A stretch of DNA of 64,000 nucleotides from Candidatus Bathyarchaeota archaeon (GTDB lineage Archaea; Thermoproteota; Bathyarchaeia; Bathyarchaeales; DTEX01), in NCBI GenBank assembly GCA_018396995.1, contig JAGTQB010000005.1, positions 15,198-79,197 on the forward strand, given 5' to 3'. The notes below the pieces were generated by a model, which was not told the DNA's origin, did no database searches, and was given only the letters and a program-made list of their open reading frames with translations. Every line of letters starts with the position of its first letter. Position 1 is the stretch's first letter. Both the position numbers and the translations under genes were made by a program. Below are positions 14,637-22,427 of the stretch, one piece after another.

Positions 14637-16337
14637 ATGCGGCGTTTCAAGGTGTCCCTTATTTTAGACTTTTCACAAATTATCGTCTTGGTGGTGCCTG
14701 TGAGGTTAAGAGCCTTAAGCCTAACAATGGTTGTCCTAATAATAGTATTGGCTTCAGCAGCTGTTCAGGTGGCATTGGCCCTGCCAGCAGCCTCGGAGCT
14801 TAGGTTGGAGAATAAGGCGAGGGCCATGATAAATGTCGCTGCCAAGGCTGAGACTAGGGTTAAAGCTCTTGTGGAGATGATTGAGGGGAATGAAAGCATT
14901 ATGGAGGCTATTGAGGGTGCTGGGCTCTTTGAATCATATAATGAAATGAAGCTCCTCATAGATCGGGGCTCAGATCTCCTGAAGGAGGCTCACGATTCAT
15001 TTGGGGCTAGAGATTATGCTGGCGCAATTCAAAAGGCTGCTGACGCCATGAGACTATTCAGGGAGGCCTACACAGGAATCCACAGGATTCTCTGCGAGTC
15101 TGGTTTAACCCCGTTTTCAGAGGCACCGGAACTTAAAGCTCAGGGCCTATTGGTAGCCGCTAACAGATCGCTTGAGAGAATTATGCGCATCAGGTCTCTG
15201 CCAAATGCCTCTGAGGTTGAGGATCTTCTCGTGGAGGCGGAGGACCTATTAAATGGAATAGCATCCCTCCTAGATCAGGGGAACGTTTCAGCGGCGGCTC
15301 ATAATTTAGCTGAGGCAAATAAGCTTATAGCTGAAGCCTTTATCCGCCTAAGAAATAGGGCTGAGAGGACTATTCGTGTTAGGGCTGAGGGTTTCCTATT
15401 AAAATTCGAGCGGATCCGGGAAGAGTTCGCTAGGAGAATTAGGGAGGAAGTGGCTAGGAGGATTAGGGAAGAGGGCTTAAATGAGATGGAGATCCTTGAG
15501 GGGCTAAGTCTCGGAAACCTCAGCCAAACCATACAGAGCCTGCTTGAAATTGTTAGGGAGACGGAGCTCGAGAGAATAAAGGACGTTATTAGGGATATTG
15601 TTGAGGATCTAAGGGAGATAGGTAAGATAATTAGGAGTGTTAAAGAGATAGCTGCTGAGAAGTTTTTGAGGATGGTGAAGGTTGGAGATATACTTGCGAA
15701 TGCCTCAGCCCTTGAAGGGAAGATTGTGATCGTTAGGGGGATGTACTGTGGGCAGGATCCTCCTGAAGGTATTCCAGGGCCTTCAGGGGAGCCGCCTAAA
15801 AAGAATTGGTGGATAATTTCTGATGAAACTGGCTGGATTTACGTTGTTGGAGAGCCCCTTATAAGAGTTATGTATAGGCCGTTGGCTAATAGGGGTGTAG
15901 GGGTCACCGTTGTCGGTAGGGTTTTTCTTGAAGAAGATACGCCGTACATAAAGGCTATGATGGTTGCTCCATCCCCCACACCGCCGGCAACACCGAGTGA
16001 CGTGTTAAGGCTGACAATTAAAGTGGATGTGGATGGAAGAGACTGCTTGATTAAAGTTACAGTTGAGAATATTGGCGATGAGACGATAGTCTTCCCAAAC
16101 GCCGCCTATGGAGCTATTGTTGAGAGGAAGGTTGCGGGCTTCTGGATCGTCATTTACGAGCCGATATCCGCTCAGGCTCTAGTAGAGATGGAGCCCGGGG
16201 AGAGCAGAACCATCACACTTCAGCTTAAGCGTCCAATAATACAGCTGGCCCATGGAACATATAGAGTTACCGTGAGAGGCTGGCTTAAGGAGAGCAAAAT
16301 GCCAGTGGTGGCCTCAGCAGAGTTCACAATACCATAA
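14637..16337 (+). CDS. Secreted or membrane-anchored modular protein (helical region + beta domains), function unknown
   Basis: It has a hydrophobic N-terminus ending AVQVALALPAAS and about 300 aa that look helical, with the tandem EFARRIREE/VARRIREE. A PTPPATPS linker follows, then a C-terminal beta-sandwich-like domain (IKVTVENIGDETIVF). Confidence 0.5.
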   Translation: MRRFKVSLILDFSQIIVLVVPVRLRALSLTMVVLIIVLASAAVQVALALPAASELRLENKARAMINVAAKAETRVKALVEMIEGNESIMEAIEGAGLFESYNEMKLLIDRGSDLLKEAHDSFGARDYAGAIQKAADAMRLFREAYTGIHRILCESGLTPFSEAPELKAQGLLVAANRSLERIMRIRSLPNASEVEDLLVEAEDLLNGIASLLDQGNVSAAAHNLAEANKLIAEAFIRLRNRAERTIRVRAEGFLLKFERIREEFARRIREEVARRIREEGLNEMEILEGLSLGNLSQTIQSLLEIVRETELERIKDVIRDIVEDLREIGKIIRSVKEIAAEKFLRMVKVGDILANASALEGKIVIVRGMYCGQDPPEGIPGPSGEPPKKNWWIISDETGWIYVVGEPLIRVMYRPLANRGVGVTVVGRVFLEEDTPYIKAMMVAPSPTPPATPSDVLRLTIKVDVDGRDCLIKVTVENIGDETIVFPNAAYGAIVERKVAGFWIVIYEPISAQALVEMEPGESRTITLQLKRPIIQLAHGTYRVTVRGWLKESKMPVVASAEFTIP

Positions 16338-16432
16338 GTTAAAATGCTTTAAACAACCTATTTTTCCTCCAAATAACCTGTGTCCATTTTTTTGAAGACT
16401 ATGAATCCAGTATTAAGCCTACCAATAGTAGT

Positions 16433-16549
16433 GTTGAAGTTATTGGAAATATGCTTAGGGTTAACATAGACAATTGGCAACCGCTCAAGCTTAGCCTTTT
16501 AGTCCCATTTAAAGTCTCGGAGAGCAGCTTGAATCTTATAAGCCTATAA
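16433..16549 (+). pseudogene. Possible short TnpB-like remnant
   Basis: The translation VEVIGNMLRVNIDNWQPLKLSLLVPFKVS weakly resembles the ...LRISVKPRKF...VLIPFK segment of the other relics. This is weak evidence. Confidence 0.2.
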
Positions 16550-16551
16550 TT

Positions 16552-17019
16552 GCTGCTGTGGCCCGCTTATCCAGAAGCCGAGCCTGAGACCAGTAATACC
16601 ATGTTGATCTCTTAGGAATCCTCCGAGAATTGGCATGAATGCGTGTGGTAGGTGCTTGGCTATATCGACTATAAAGGATATTGTGAAGAACCGCGTGAGC
16701 TGCTCGTCTAAAAGGGCTGTGAGGAGGAGTTCTGGTGTGTTAGGGCTGAGGCATACATGATTTGGGCAGCTCCGAGGAAAATAGTTCCAGCGCCTATTGG
16801 AATAGTCCTGCCTAAGGTGTCGCCAAGGTATCCGCTTATAATCAGGGCTATATATAGGTAGAGCTCCGGAGGGATATGATGAGCCCAGGGGACAAGGCTT
16901 CTCCAGTTAAACTATAAATGTATTCGGGAAAGGTAGGGGTATGTTAGCCCGAAAGATAAGCTTAACAGGAAGCTCGTGAGCAACATAATCTTGGTGTTTA
17001 AGTGGAGTTTCCTCAGCAT
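16552..17019 (-). pseudogene. MFS transporter remnant (in-frame stop, frameshift, truncated)
   Basis: Read from ATG 17019 on the minus strand: MLRKLHLNTKIMLLTSFLLSLSFGLTYPYLSRIHL*FNW...LYIALIISGYLGDTLGRTIPIGAGTIFLGAAQIMYA. A frame change follows to ...FMPILGGFLRDQHGITGLRLGFWISG. No ORF of 60 aa or more survives in this ~1 kb. Confidence 0.55.
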
Positions 17020-17147
17020 ACCGCTTAGCCACTTACCTAAACAATCTTTAACCTAGCGAAAATTAAGCCTTAATATTTAACAGCACCATGTTGTGGACTC
17101 CAGTTCTGAATGATGAAAAACTAAAAGGCTTATTATTGCTTGTTTGA

Positions 17148-17214
17148 GGGATCAGGGATCAGCCAGCCTGTCATCCAATTAGGGCTGTCCACGCTTTCGA
17201 CCCTCATCATCCCC
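17148..17214 (-). ncRNA. Box C/D sRNA candidate
   Basis: Minus strand: GGGG-AUGAUGA(C)-GGGUCGAAAGCG(12 nt)-UGGA(D')-10 nt-UGGAUGA(C')-15 nt-CUGA(D)-UCCC. A 4-bp terminal stem is present. D' is degenerate and the second spacer is long. Confidence 0.45.
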
Positions 17215-17302
17215 AATAATATGCTTTCTCTCCAATAACTATAAACCCTTTATGGTTTAAGAATTCATTATGGAGATAGTGAATATTTTGTTTGTAGGGT
17301 TC

Positions 17303-19072
17303 TCAGCGCTGCATACGTGAGCCAGCACCCTCATACCACGCTCTCCTTATAGTCTTGGGTCTCAGATCCGTTATGTCGGCCAGAGCTTCTAAGAGTATCT
17401 CGGTTTTAGCAAGCTTTGGTTCAGGAAGCCTGTTCCCATAATTATCGTAGCCTACATAGACCACGCATGGCTTTATCTCATATAGCCAGTCTATGAGCTC
17501 CATATCAAAGTCCAATATGGGCTCTATTACAACCACCTTCCACCTCCAATTAAGCCTGCGCATAGCCTCATAGCGCTCCCTTGGCGGCGGAGCCCTGCTT
17601 AACCCATAATCTCTGTTGGTCTCAATGGTCGCTCCCAGGACAACATTGCCGCTGAACTCATCTATAAATTCAAGGTATCTAGCAGGGTTCTTCGTTAAGA
17701 ATAGGAAGCGGGCTCTTGGCTTAGAGCGGACAACCCTCAATACGCCCTCAATCCAATCCCTCGGAACCCAAGAATTACCGCACCAAACCGGCTTACCATT
17801 TCTTCTAACATAAATTATGTGAGTGGGCACCTCGAGGCAATAGACATAACCTCTATAATCTTCATAGCCGACATAGCATCTAGTTTTAATGCCCAGCTTA
17901 TTAGTAGCCCCTATATTGCGGGCTTGGCCGACTTCAGGCATCTTATTTCTCCTACTAATTGTGACCTCATAGTGGTCGCGCCCTCTTGCCACAATCTCTC
18001 CGCCAATATTTTTATCCCGTTTTCTACCTCTCTTTCTCACTATAGATGCATATCCGCATTTCAACGCCACTTCCTGAATATCGTCGGCGAGCCTCTTGCT
18101 GGTCGTATAGGCTCTTTTACAGTTTCCTGATGACCTATTACCGTCGCCATTAATATAGGCTTCAAGCATTATATTTAGTAATCTTTTCGACAGGTTTTTC
18201 AATTCAGGGGGAATATGCTTTTCGTCTCCATGACCCAGCTTTTGAAGATATTCTATGAGCTCCCGATCTCCATAAATTGTGATCCCATCTCCGTAAGCAC
18301 AAAAGTTTTTTCCTCTACTTTCAGCGACCGCTTTTATTGTCTCAAGGGCATCTTTATATTGGGGGCTTGTGTTCTTTTTGGCAACCTTTATTCGCATCTC
18401 ATTATTTATTATCAAGACTTCATCCTCGGCTAGATAATACCCGAGGAATTTCATAAAAATGTCTACTGGTACACCCGCAATCTCATCTACCTCATAACCC
18501 TCCCAGTTTGGAAAGTCACTTCGAAACTTTATTCTCTTCCCAAGGCAGCTCTCAGCTCTGACTAAACTAAAGTCTCCAAAATTTACACCCCGCCCCCCAC
18601 GCGATGTGGTTCTCACCGCAACATAGAGGTTGTGGTCTGGAGTAACTAATAAATCTACAAAATTCGACTTTACTCTAACCATCTTTCCCTCATACCAGTA
18701 TTTTACGATTCTTGTGGGCTTACAGTAAATAACTCTATTATTGTTTGGGTCTAAGCAAGCTACCAGGTCATCATAAGTGACTTCATTAAATTTCTTCCAT
18801 CCATTATAAGTCAATACTTCAGTCTCCTCATCATAACAACCCCACATATCACCCATATCCGAGACAAATATAAACCCTTTATCCGGGAGCCTTTGCCTAA
18901 GCCTCTCAGCCACAAATGTTGGGTTAAAGCCATGCGACCTATAGGGTTCAATGCCTCTCGAGGCTAATCTAGCAGCATATTTTCTAGACCAACAGTAGAC
19001 GCAGTTATGTAGGCAGCCAACTATTGGGTTCCACGAGTAAGTTATCTCTCCAGGCGGGCCCTCATGAACCAA
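17303..19072 (-). CDS. Gp37/Gp68-family (DUF5131, COG4422) radical-SAM-like protein, intein-containing precursor
   Basis: The N-extein has WNPIVGCLHNCVYCW (CX3CX2C) and ...FVSDMGDMWG. The C-extein resumes SWVPRDWIEGVL...FLFLTKNP. The joined exteins total 234 aa, a length I recall as normal for this family. Confidence 0.85.
   Translation of the reverse strand: MVHEGPPGEITYSWNPIVGCLHNCVYCWSRKYAARLASRGIEPYRSHGFNPTFVAERLRQRLPDKGFIFVSDMGDMWGCYDEETEVLTYNGWKKFNEVTYDDLVACLDPNNNRVIYCKPTRIVKYWYEGKMVRVKSNFVDLLVTPDHNLYVAVRTTSRGGRGVNFGDFSLVRAESCLGKRIKFRSDFPNWEGYEVDEIAGVPVDIFMKFLGYYLAEDEVLIINNEMRIKVAKKNTSPQYKDALETIKAVAESRGKNFCAYGDGITIYGDRELIEYLQKLGHGDEKHIPPELKNLSKRLLNIMLEAYINGDGNRSSGNCKRAYTTSKRLADDIQEVALKCGYASIVRKRGRKRDKNIGGEIVARGRDHYEVTISRRNKMPEVGQARNIGATNKLGIKTRCYVGYEDYRGYVYCLEVPTHIIYVRRNGKPVWCGNSWVPRDWIEGVLRVVRSKPRARFLFLTKNPARYLEFIDEFSGNVVLGATIETNRDYGLSRAPPPRERYEAMRRLNWRWKVVVIEPILDFDMELIDWLYEIKPCVVYVGYDNYGNRLPEPKLAKTEILLEALADITDLRPKTIRRAWYEGAGSRMQR
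17774..18838 (-). mobile_element. Intein (355 aa) with a LAGLIDADG homing-endonuclease domain
   Basis: Block A is CYDEETEVLT (Cys1 codon at 18838-18836) and block B is LLVTPDHNLYV. The LAGLIDADG motifs are FLGYYLAEDE and LEAYINGDGN. The C-terminal end is PVWCGN followed by the +1 Ser (codon at 17773-17771). Confidence 0.85.
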
Positions 19073-20725: not shown

Positions 20726-21337
20726 GTGGGGTCTTTCGTCTTGTCTTTCCTCAAGAAGCTGGCCGAAAAGGTTACGCCTCCAAAAGTCGTCTTAAAATTG
20801 AATCTCAGTGAGAATGTCGTCTTTCTTGGCGATTATCTCAAGGGGGAACTACTTTTATCCTCGGATGAAGAATTTGACGCCGACGAGATTAGATGCGAGA
20901 TCCTTTGTGTTGAGTCAGCTAGGGTTCAGAAGCGCTTCTATGATCCGGCATTGAAGAGGGAAGTTGTTAGGGAGGTTTGGGAGTCAGCTACTTTATATTC
21001 GGCAAAGCCATGTCTCACCGGACCCATGCATATATCAAAGGGTTTCACAGCGAGCTTCCCATTCAGCATCCAAATCCCAATAACGATGAAGCCCACTTCA
21101 AAGGGGATAGATAGAAGGGTAACATGGACTATTAAGGGAGTCGTAGCAGTTGAGGGTAGGCCGGACGCGACCAGCCAAACAATTGAGTTTCATGTTGCCC
21201 AGCCGGCTGCGCCCCCAATTGTTAAGGAGAAGGAGGTTATCCGCGAGGTAGTGATGGTTCCATGTAAATATTGTGGAACACTCTTCCCGCAGACCGAGAC
21301 GGTTTGCCCCCACTGTGGTGCAAGGAGGACTATATAA
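20726..21337 (+). CDS. Spo0M/arrestin-like beta-sandwich protein with a C-terminal zinc ribbon
   Basis: The N-terminus SFLKKLAEKV..PKVVLKLNLSENVVFLGDYLKGELLLSS...DADEIRCEILCVE resembles, from memory, the opening of the SpoOM family (PF07070, arrestin-like). The C-terminus is CKYCG-x12-CPHCG. Confidence 0.6.
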   Translation: MGSFVLSFLKKLAEKVTPPKVVLKLNLSENVVFLGDYLKGELLLSSDEEFDADEIRCEILCVESARVQKRFYDPALKREVVREVWESATLYSAKPCLTGPMHISKGFTASFPFSIQIPITMKPTSKGIDRRVTWTIKGVVAVEGRPDATSQTIEFHVAQPAAPPIVKEKEVIREVVMVPCKYCGTLFPQTETVCPHCGARRTI

Positions 21338-21398: not shown

Positions 21399-22427
21399 TT
21401 AGGCTAGTCTCTCCCCACAATTTTGACAGAACTTTGCCCCTGGCTGAACCTCGCTCCCACATTTAGGGCACTTAATTAAGGATTGTAGTGGGGAGCCGCA
21501 ATTTATACAGAATTTTGCTCCAGGTGGATTAGTTGTTCCACACTTCGGACATTGTATACCCGCTGCCTGTAGGGGCGCTCCACAGTTCTGGCAGAACCTT
21601 GCTGTTGACGGGTTCTGGAAACCGCACTTCGGACACAATGTCAATTGTTGTGGTTGGGCCGCCGGCTGTTGGAACAGCGGTGGGATCACAGCTATGCCAG
21701 CTCCAACGGCAGCTCCTGGGCTCTTTGATAAGCTCTCAGCAGCTCTCTGAACAGTCTGCATCCTCAGAACTTCACTTGCTGAGACCCCTGTTCTCAAGAA
21801 GAATATTCTATCCCTCCATTCCGGGGTTGTATCAATACCCTCAAACTTCACGTCGATTAGCTCAAGCCCTATCCTCCTAAAAGCATCGTAGAGGGCATTC
21901 TTAACTAGGAAGCTGGTTTCATCAAGCTTTCCATAAACCTCGATTAATGAGTATTGGCTTAAGGTGTCAATTAACCTCTCATTAAAATATCCCCTAAGGA
22001 ACTCTTGGAGGCTTCCTGTTGTATACGCGCCCTGGCCGCCTACAACCTCGTTCACGAAGAGGTTTGGTTCCTCAATCCTAAACCAAAAGCTCCCATAAAA
22101 TTTTAGTGGGGCAAGCTCTTTAGTTTGGCCTTGGGAGCCAAACTTCCCCTGAAACTGCTTTAATGAAACAAATATTACTGTGGCCCTGAATGGAGCTTTA
22201 TCGTAGCCCGCTATGGCCGAGAGCACCTTTGTTAATAAGGGCAGGTTTGCTGTTGTTAGTACGTGTCTTCCAGCCCTAAAAACATCGTAGGCTTTTCCAT
22301 CCCTAAAGAAGACGGCCGCCTCATACTCGTGGACAACAAGAACATCTCCCCAGGCGATGTCTTCCCTCGGATACCTCCAAACTATATCCTCCTCCCTTGC
22401 ACCAACCCACTCAATAACCTTTGGCAT
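21399..22427 (-). CDS. SPFH-like protein of the YdjI/COG4260 type with three tandem C-terminal zinc ribbons
   Basis: The N-terminal ~250 aa (VIEWVG...IVWRYP...VLVVHEYEAAVFFRDGK...) fit the family annotated as virion core protein-like / stomatin-prohibitin with a Zn ribbon. A Q/P linker is followed by three copies of CPKCG-x10-12-FCxNCG. Confidence 0.7.
   Translation of the reverse strand: MPKVIEWVGAREEDIVWRYPREDIAWGDVLVVHEYEAAVFFRDGKAYDVFRAGRHVLTTANLPLLTKVLSAIAGYDKAPFRATVIFVSLKQFQGKFGSQGQTKELAPLKFYGSFWFRIEEPNLFVNEVVGGQGAYTTGSLQEFLRGYFNERLIDTLSQYSLIEVYGKLDETSFLVKNALYDAFRRIGLELIDVKFEGIDTTPEWRDRIFFLRTGVSASEVLRMQTVQRAAESLSKSPGAAVGAGIAVIPPLFQQPAAQPQQLTLCPKCGFQNPSTARFCQNCGAPLQAAGIQCPKCGTTNPPGAKFCINCGSPLQSLIKCPKCGSEVQPGAKFCQNCGERLA

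Follow-up and report, generated by a model that had tools for sequence, protein, structure and literature searches.

A probable LAGLIDADG intein with a Gly-Asn end in a DUF5131 radical-SAM gene of a Bathyarchaeota archaeon

Introduction

Why should a protein whose homologs are nearly all 215-250 amino acids (aa) long be encoded by an open reading frame (ORF) of 589 aa? The question is raised by a gene for a DUF5131 radical S-adenosylmethionine (radical-SAM) protein in a stretch of 64,000 nucleotides of contig JAGTQB010000005.1 (assembly GCA_018396995.1) from a Candidatus Bathyarchaeota archaeon. This whole stretch is called the window here, and all coordinates refer to it. The ORF contains an insert of 355 aa, and we found that the whole is best explained as a class-1-type intein with HINT and LAGLIDADG domains within a DUF5131 enzyme, a reading to which we assign a probability of about 85%. 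It is carried by the insertion and its exact boundaries, the fold, the conservation of individual residues, orthologs with an empty site and the patterns of selection among alleles. An initial annotation, made from the letters of the window, had already placed a LAGLIDADG intein within this DUF5131 (Gp37/Gp68) radical-SAM gene at a conserved motif, and the contiguous exteins, empty syntenic orthologs, HINT and LAGLIDADG fold and conserved splicing residues described below uphold that placement. It was also exact in the 589-aa ORF, the 355-aa insert, the 234-aa spliced product and the boundaries of the intein.

In public records the precursor gene and its relatives are named only 'DUF5131 family protein', the intein being previously unannotated, and a search of a literature collection found no earlier description of an intein in DUF5131. 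DUF5131 is a new intein host family and MWG^SW a new insertion site (a caret marks the point of splicing or insertion), and the true enzyme behind the annotated 'DUF5131 family protein' is the 234-aa spliced product.

The insert and its empty site

The features of the gene, all on the minus strand, are as follows.

17303..19072, minus strand: precursor gene, DUF5131 radical-SAM protein with the intein inside; 589 aa, TTG start, stop codon 17303-17305
18839..19072, minus strand: N-extein, aa 1-78; ends FVSDMGDMWG at the splice site
18992-19015, minus strand: radical-SAM cluster motif CLHNCVYC in the N-extein; CX3CX2C
18839-18868, minus strand: conserved loop motif FVSDMGDMWG, the end of the N-extein
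17774..18838, minus strand: intein, aa 79-433, 355 aa; HINT splicing domain in which a two-motif LAGLIDADG homing-endonuclease domain is nested
18797..18838, minus strand: block A CYDEETEVLTYNGW; Cys1, predicted nucleophile for the N-S acyl shift
18623..18661, minus strand: block B FVDLLVTPDHNLY; Thr66 (B:7) and His69 (B:10)
18419..18457, minus strand: LAGLIDADG motif 1 FMKFLGYYLAEDE; catalytic Glu138 present, Asp at 139 instead of Gly
18140..18178, minus strand: LAGLIDADG motif 2 LNIMLEAYINGDG; catalytic Asp232 and Gly233 intact
17801..17851, minus strand: block F GYVYCLEVPTHIIYVRR; Cys334 at F:4 (usually Asp), His340 at about F:13, Arg346 invariant
17771..17794, minus strand: block G plus the +1 residue, KPVWCGN^S; Gly354 penultimate, Asn355 predicted to cyclise, Ser434 (+1) predicted C-extein nucleophile
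17306..17773, minus strand: C-extein, aa 434-589; remainder of the radical-SAM partial TIM barrel

The insert starts with CYDEETEVLT, carries VTPDH, LGYYLAEDE and LEAYINGDG, and ends with VWCGN, which is followed by Ser+1; chance would not be expected to bring these features together. In-silico splicing gave a product of 234 aa with the expected junction peptide DMGDMWGSWVPR; by calculation, the precursor has a mass of 68.1 kDa, the spliced product one of 27.4 kDa and the intein one of 40.7 kDa. The GC content of the intein is 41% (40% at third codon positions), against 48-50% (47-54%) in the exteins. The identical 589-aa protein (P0121) was found on four contigs and is present in metagenomes of the Joint Genome Institute (JGI). 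The window is identical to JGI metagenome contig Ga0209394_1000130 over 13.8 kb, and a contig of a second metagenome sample (record JzSedJan11, which we read as hot-spring sediment) has 99.98% DNA identity to it. Since loci from two separate metagenome samples match at 99.98-100% DNA identity, the ORF is not an assembly artefact.

The exteins form a contiguous DUF5131 protein once the insert is removed, an alignment that had been set beforehand as a test. The spliced protein matched PF07505 at 66.5 bits (cut-off 28.9) in a single stretch, residues 12-175 to profile positions 9-178, whereas the unspliced precursor scored 46.5 bits in two stretches. When the spliced protein was used as a query, more than 1000 homologs were found, mostly from Bathyarchaeia, Thermoproteota and Nitrososphaerota. 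The initial annotation had pointed to intein-free alleles in related genomes as a check, and 58 close orthologs without the insert, exactly at G^S, were recovered. The best of them, P0001 (224 aa, 87% identity), reads ...FVSDMGDMWG-SWVPGE..., with the Gly directly joined to the Ser, and the empty-site sequence on its contig, L001, is GACATGGGCGACATGTGGGGT^AGCTGGGTTCCGGGCGAGTGG. Contig L001 belongs to a metagenome-assembled genome (MAG) of Bathyarchaeia and has the gene order of the window: PolB, a VTT-domain protein, small ORFs, DUF5131, a protein of about 545 aa, an AIR-synthase-related protein, HypA, a NUBPL/ParA ATPase and DUF7662. At the DNA level, the gene of the window and that of L001 are 78% identical on both sides of a clean gap of 1065 bp. 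No repeats marking a DNA-level mobile element were found around the DUF5131 gene, as is expected for an intein. The intein-bearing proteins P0121-P0127 were not among the best 120 matches of the spliced query, though their exteins are 74-100% identical to it; the cause is probably the word-index step that collects candidates, and not biology.

Relatives and fold of the insert

The insert matched the LAGLIDADG_3 profile (PF14528) at 26.5 bits, above the Pfam cut-off of 22.5, and also the intein portions of intein-containing PolII and Tes family models. A search with the insert alone collected 425 proteins. Inserts in hundreds of unrelated host proteins match it along its entire length with E-values of 1e-35 to 1e-54, and the best 120 align over residues 1-355 at about 30-39% identity. 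The hosts of the full-length relatives include ThyX, MCM, DNA methylases, peptidases and others, and in the best 120 the insert always runs from a Cys to an Asn that is followed by Ser, Thr or Cys (120/120). In an alignment of 67 sequences, C1, T6, L9, G13, H69 (the block B His), S247, R346 and N355 are invariant, and T66, G139, D232, G233, C334, W352 and G354 are conserved in at least 90%. Block B holds the canonical Thr-x-x-His as T66-P-D-H69, and Cys1 is kept in 248 of 250 copies of the lineage.

An AlphaFold model of the intein, built on the 67-sequence alignment, reached a predicted local distance difference test score (pLDDT) of 92.4 and a predicted template-modelling (TM) score of 0.91. 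Searched against the PDB with Foldseek, it found as top matches the homing-endonuclease inteins TliVMA, PhoVMA, PI-SceI, PI-PfuI and PI-TkoII at E-values of 1e-19 to 1e-12, while I-DmoI matched the endonuclease part of the model (TM 0.65 normalised to the target). The solved inteins of this kind, TliVMA (7QSS/7QSU), PhoVMA (7QST), PI-SceI (1VDE), PI-PfuI (1DQ3) and PI-TkoII/PkoII (2CW7), share the two-domain architecture at TM 0.55-0.67; they differ from the window intein in sequence, with 11-17% identity, and PI-PkoII has Asp at F:4 (VYDLSV). When the PDB was searched with a profile, PI-PkoII was likewise matched at E 1e-18, together with TliVMA and further solved inteins, and the alignment placed the clade sequence dYeGkVYCvtVp opposite dYdGyVYDLsV of PI-PkoII. 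Because this alignment to VYDLSV fixes the register, Cys334 can be assigned to position 4 of block F.

The Gly-Asn end and a proposed route of splicing

The penultimate residue of the intein (G:6) is Gly354, not the usual His, and this had been flagged in the initial annotation as non-canonical. The Gly-Asn (GN) end is present as claimed, and it is unusual solely against the general intein consensus; in the intein's own lineage it is the norm. It occurs in 118 of the 120 relatives nearest to the intein and, among the lineage copies in the best 143 proteins, in 216 of 239, where a His-Asn (HN) end occurs four times. When 1.84 billion representatives of 50%-identity clusters were searched exhaustively, 10,165 proteins had an E-value of at most 1e-3; of these, 6,041 lay at or below 1e-10 and 1,080 at or below 1e-30. 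Members of the lineage often occur in multiple copies, with up to 12 matched stretches in proteins of 1,000-3,700 aa, and their consensus reads CYDxxTEVLT at the start, VTPxH in block B and VYCxxVPxHxxYVRRNGKPVW[CS]GN at the end. Position G:5 varies across the lineage (C/S/T/Q/I), with Cys or Ser being common. Because GN is near-universal among these relatives, the Gly is no defect but a signature under selection in a very large lineage. A PDB search detected by sequence no member of the GN lineage with a solved structure.

There is published precedent for both unusual residues. A penultimate His is common but non-essential, splicing without it is documented, and a block-F His can stand in for it; mycobacteriophage class 1 inteins often carry Gly, Lys or Ser in its place (Kelley et al. 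2016, PMC5050341). At F:4, Asp is found most often in inteins, then Cys, then Trp (Mills et al. 2014, PMC4031507). The Gly-Asn end and the Cys at F:4 are thus known variants, and the intein is unexceptional within its lineage, which is known, very large and includes known phage inteins.

We compared phage inteins by tblastn, considering the best 30 of 80 matches. The ThyX intein of Corynebacterium phage P1201 belongs to the same lineage: it is 31% identical across residues 1-355 (E 3e-40), starts with CYSSDTEVLT, ends with ...RNGKPVWSGN^S, and has a LAGLIDADG endonuclease and a penultimate Gly. It differs in its host, the ThyX of an actinobacterial phage, and in having Ser at G:5, where the window intein has Cys. 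A more distant member is the intein in the gp3 nucleotidyltransferase of cluster C1 mycobacteriophages (for example ET08 gp3), which is catalogued in PMC5050341. It aligns over its full length at 26% identity (E 1e-10) and shares Cys1, a block B of VTPNH, IVCFTVP with Cys at F:4 and a penultimate Gly in its end TRRNGKVAMHGN^T (...MHGN^T); its host is a phage protein and its G:5 residue is His. The best functional precedent for GN^S is the intein in gp51 of phage Bethlehem, a recombination directionality factor (RDF) or metallophosphoesterase. This class 1 intein with a penultimate Gly splices completely, and the substitution G316H slows it (PMC5050341). It has Cys1, EVWCLRVP with Cys at F:4, and ...HLTGN^S; unlike the window intein, to which it is distantly similar overall, it comes from a bacterial phage and a mesophile. 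Inteins in radical-SAM enzymes are already catalogued in the Tes intein (NCBIfam NF045703), a model that the window intein matches; in the Tes intein, as in inteins at a second DUF5131 site described below, both the element and the site differ from those at MWG^SW.

We propose the standard class 1 route of splicing, in which Cys79 of the precursor (Cys1 of the intein) would undergo an N-S acyl shift at Gly78, aided by the Thr and His of block B, and Ser434 (+1) would then attack the thioester to form a branched ester. Asn433 (Asn355 of the intein) would cyclise without a penultimate His, as is normal for the lineage, probably helped by residues of block F, for example His340 and the invariant Arg346. 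An O-N shift would finally give a mature 27-kDa enzyme with native ...DMGDMWG-SWVP... and a free intein of 41 kDa.

Several points weigh against our reading of the insert as a class-1-type intein. The general intein profiles Intein_splicing (PF14890) and TIGR01445 (intein_Nterm) score 21.0 and 21.9 bits, below their cut-offs of 35.8 and 24.5, both with significant E-values; in the profile comparison that the initial annotation had suggested, it is the LAGLIDADG_3 match that stands above its cut-off. A single-sequence search of the PDB with the intein found no solved intein, and single-sequence searches gave no meaningful match for intein or host, both of which were linked to known structures by profile and fold searches. 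With the penultimate His absent and Cys instead of Asp at F:4, the first three steps of the route may deviate from textbook class 1. That splicing takes place, and which residues would replace the penultimate His, we infer from conservation. Finally, the change G139D in the first LAGLIDADG motif may have inactivated the endonuclease.

An alternative that we consider unlikely is that splicing follows a lineage-specific non-standard or conditional route, in which Cys334 would serve as a relay nucleophile or would take part in a redox-sensitive disulfide among Cys1, Cys334 and Cys353. In the redox variant, the disulfide would keep the precursor of the oxygen-sensitive radical-SAM enzyme inactive as long as conditions are not reducing. 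Such a route would agree with the conservation of the F:4 Cys in at least 90% of sequences, with the frequent Cys or Ser at G:5, and with the slowing of a related phage intein by Gly to His, which suggests a tuned C-terminal step (PMC5050341). It also has a model in the class 3 inteins, which are defined by the lack of an N-terminal nucleophile and by a WCT triplet of Trp at B:12, Cys at F:4 and Thr at G:5, and in which the F:4 Cys is the obligate nucleophile (PMC2807308). Class 3 inteins such as MP-Be DnaB and AceL NrdHF resemble the window intein in the F:4 Cys and in the preference for Ser or Thr at +1, and the N-terminal region of the window intein has a profile match to the AceL NrdHF intein. 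Membership of class 3 was nevertheless rejected, as three of its four features fail: Cys1 is present, B:12 is Leu71 and G:5 is Cys353, so that only Cys334 at F:4 fits. In addition, the TxxH of block B is canonical, and among inteins in general only one residue is found at F:4 more often than Cys (PMC4031507). Since G:5 varies across the lineage, a conserved disulfide partner is unlikely. We regard it as similarly improbable that the inteins with GN and an F:4 Cys are a mechanistically distinct subclass of class 1, in which Asn would cyclise without a G:6 His, for example by means of Arg346 or His340, and the F:4 Cys would act as relay or redox gate. If they were, maturation of the radical-SAM enzyme would be redox-conditional in this anaerobic hot-spring archaeon.

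Selection on alleles and probable decay of the endonuclease

Seven diverged alleles carry an intein at the same site, namely the window allele (P0121) and P0122-P0127. Among them, intein identity is 60-79% and extein identity 62-94%, and hardly any change is seen in blocks A, B, F and G. Ratios of nonsynonymous to synonymous substitution rates (dN/dS, Nei-Gojobori) were 0.07-0.10 for the exteins, 0.11-0.15 for the HINT domain and 0.25-0.27 for the endonuclease domain. By these values, splicing is strongly constrained and the endonuclease less so. The initial annotation had argued from the presence of an intein in a conserved motif that the host protein matters to this archaeon; it does matter, as judged by a dN/dS of about 0.08, and the presence of the intein is not what shows it.

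In a neighbour-joining tree of the exteins, intein-bearing and intein-free alleles are intermixed within one sub-clade of Bathyarchaeia. The dS between the window allele and P0122 is 0.28 in the exteins and 0.42-0.60 in the intein, and that between the window allele and P0123 is 1.77 and 0.71-1.06, respectively; this disagreement, on small site counts, hints at some horizontal movement. The +1 residue is Ser in all seven intein alleles, whereas the 58 intein-free alleles have Glu (28), Asp (24), Ser (4), Ala (1) or Asn (1). The four intein-free alleles with Ser+1 (P0001, P0003, P0005 and P0006) are the nearest relatives of the intein-bearing ones, which fits precise loss and permissive targets alike.

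A second insertion site in DUF5131, FIFV^[SC]DMGDMWG, lies 8 residues upstream of the first, at about 18862/18863 of the window between Val70 and Ser71. It holds canonical mini-inteins ending in HN^C in P0015 and P0016 (Bathyarchaeia) and a large GN-lineage intein in the distant DUF5131 homolog P0128.

In the model of the intein, helix 125-138 ends at E138 and helix 218-232 at D232, which are the positions of the catalytic acids. The clade consensus of motif 1 is FLGYYLAEG, and the window allele keeps E138, D232 and G233. The reading AEDE, which the initial annotation had noted as non-standard for the first motif, is present, and the catalytic Glu is retained in it. The residue lost is the following Gly139, which at least 90% of relatives keep and which is replaced by Asp (GAT) in the window allele, the only one of the seven with this change. 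Five of the six sister alleles are without one or both catalytic acids (ARGK/SGSG, AGGN, ARGN/NCNG, AGGN/GGGY, NSGG), and P0123 is the only sister allele in which both LAGLIDADG motifs are fully canonical. Since five of six have lost a catalytic acid while the splicing blocks are intact, the endonuclease appears to be decaying in this archaeal sub-lineage, its state of activity being judged here from the motifs.

On the intein reading, the LAGLIDADG endonuclease would have driven the homing of the element into an allele that lacked an intein and had Ser at +1; the element would now be largely immobile in this sub-lineage while its endonuclease decays. Its persistence may be explained mainly by the host, because only precise splicing keeps the enzyme functional. 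The seven alleles can be viewed as a snapshot of a homing cycle, in which the splicing residues are frozen, the catalytic residues of the endonuclease mostly lost, and Ser+1 kept in the nearest intein-free alleles.

Less likely still than a non-standard route is that the intein is dead or degenerate and no longer splices, so that the DUF5131 gene would be functionally lost or would work with a 355-aa domain in its active-site loop. The missing penultimate His, an F:4 residue other than Asp, generic intein profile scores below the cut-offs and the visible decay of the endonuclease in sister alleles would all agree with such a state. Against it, however, all nucleophiles and the Thr and His of block B are intact and invariant across the lineage, and the GN end is ancestral to thousands of inteins and functional in a phage intein (PMC5050341). 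The purifying selection on both the exteins and the HINT domain of intein-bearing alleles, and Ser+1 in seven of seven of them compared with mostly Glu or Asp in intein-free alleles, also argue for splicing. Two readings without a mobile insertion, in which the 355 aa would be an ordinary accessory domain of the DUF5131 family or the product of a chimeric assembly, are refuted, because only the continuity of the ORF speaks for them, against 58 close orthologs that lack the insert exactly at G^S, the same type of insert in dozens of unrelated host proteins, identical sequence in independent metagenomes and the lower GC content of the intein.

The host enzyme and its genomic setting

DUF5131 is a radical-SAM subgroup listed beside spore photoproduct lyase in RadicalSAM.org (PMC9477430). 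The cysteines of its [4Fe-4S] motif CX3CX2C, C20-x3-C24-x2-C27, are invariant in 51 orthologs. A model of the intein-free ortholog P0001 (pLDDT 95.7) is a partial TIM barrel that, among solved structures, most resembles spore photoproduct lyase and lipoyl synthase (LipA). The likeness to spore photoproduct lyase makes damaged or modified DNA a candidate substrate. In P0001 numbering, the intein would lie in the loop after strand beta2 (E62-65) and before helix 78-89, flanked by near-invariant residues on both sides (D67, M68, G69, D70 and G73 before, W75, V76 and P77 after). As in radical-SAM enzymes generally, the loop region after beta2 would contribute to SAM binding, and the loop interrupted here (FIFV-SDMGDMWG^SWVP) is predicted to adjoin the SAM and cluster site. 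Both DUF5131 insertion sites flank this loop, in line with the rule that inteins settle in active-site motifs; the DUF5131 intein does not overturn current understanding. Thermophile-derived inteins of the GN lineage are little studied, and might serve as splicing tools.

The initial annotation had described the host family as one mostly known from phage and defence-island contexts. The host protein indeed matches the PADLOC candidate-defence models PDC-M41B and PDC-M30B at about 66 bits, as well as a PHROG without known function. The gene here, however, belongs to a block of the chromosome that keeps its synteny across Bathyarchaeia MAGs. Because its neighbours are housekeeping-type genes in this conserved order, a setting in a phage or defence island was rejected. 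No match to any PDC-M41 or PDC-M30 component was found in four neighbouring proteins.

The window has an overall GC content of 45%, and scans of the whole 64 kb found no tRNA gene and no Rfam family at the gathering threshold. A gap of about 965 bp (16338-17302) between the DUF5131 gene and a convergent 566-aa gene contains no ORF of at least 60 aa, Rfam match or tRNA. The same spacer measures about 230 bp in the intein-free contig L001 and holds an aldehyde dehydrogenase gene in contig L009. The gap was considered as a decayed aldehyde-dehydrogenase gene, a candidate that was rejected when tblastn with the L009 protein gave no similarity. The convergent gene (14637-16337, plus strand) encodes a protein of 566 aa with no Pfam match, which has an N-terminal hydrophobic segment, long helical Glu/Arg-rich repeats (RIREE...) and a beta-rich C-terminus. 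This protein is a conserved neighbour of DUF5131 in related MAGs, where it has 542-546 aa and, in L009, a weak Big_14 match. Further along the window, an arrestin-N-like protein of 203 aa (20726-21337, plus strand) adjoins an SPFH/Band-7 protein of 342 aa with a C-terminal zinc-ribbon array (21399-22427, minus strand). This pair is absent from the otherwise syntenic L001 and is present in the window and in L004/L005.

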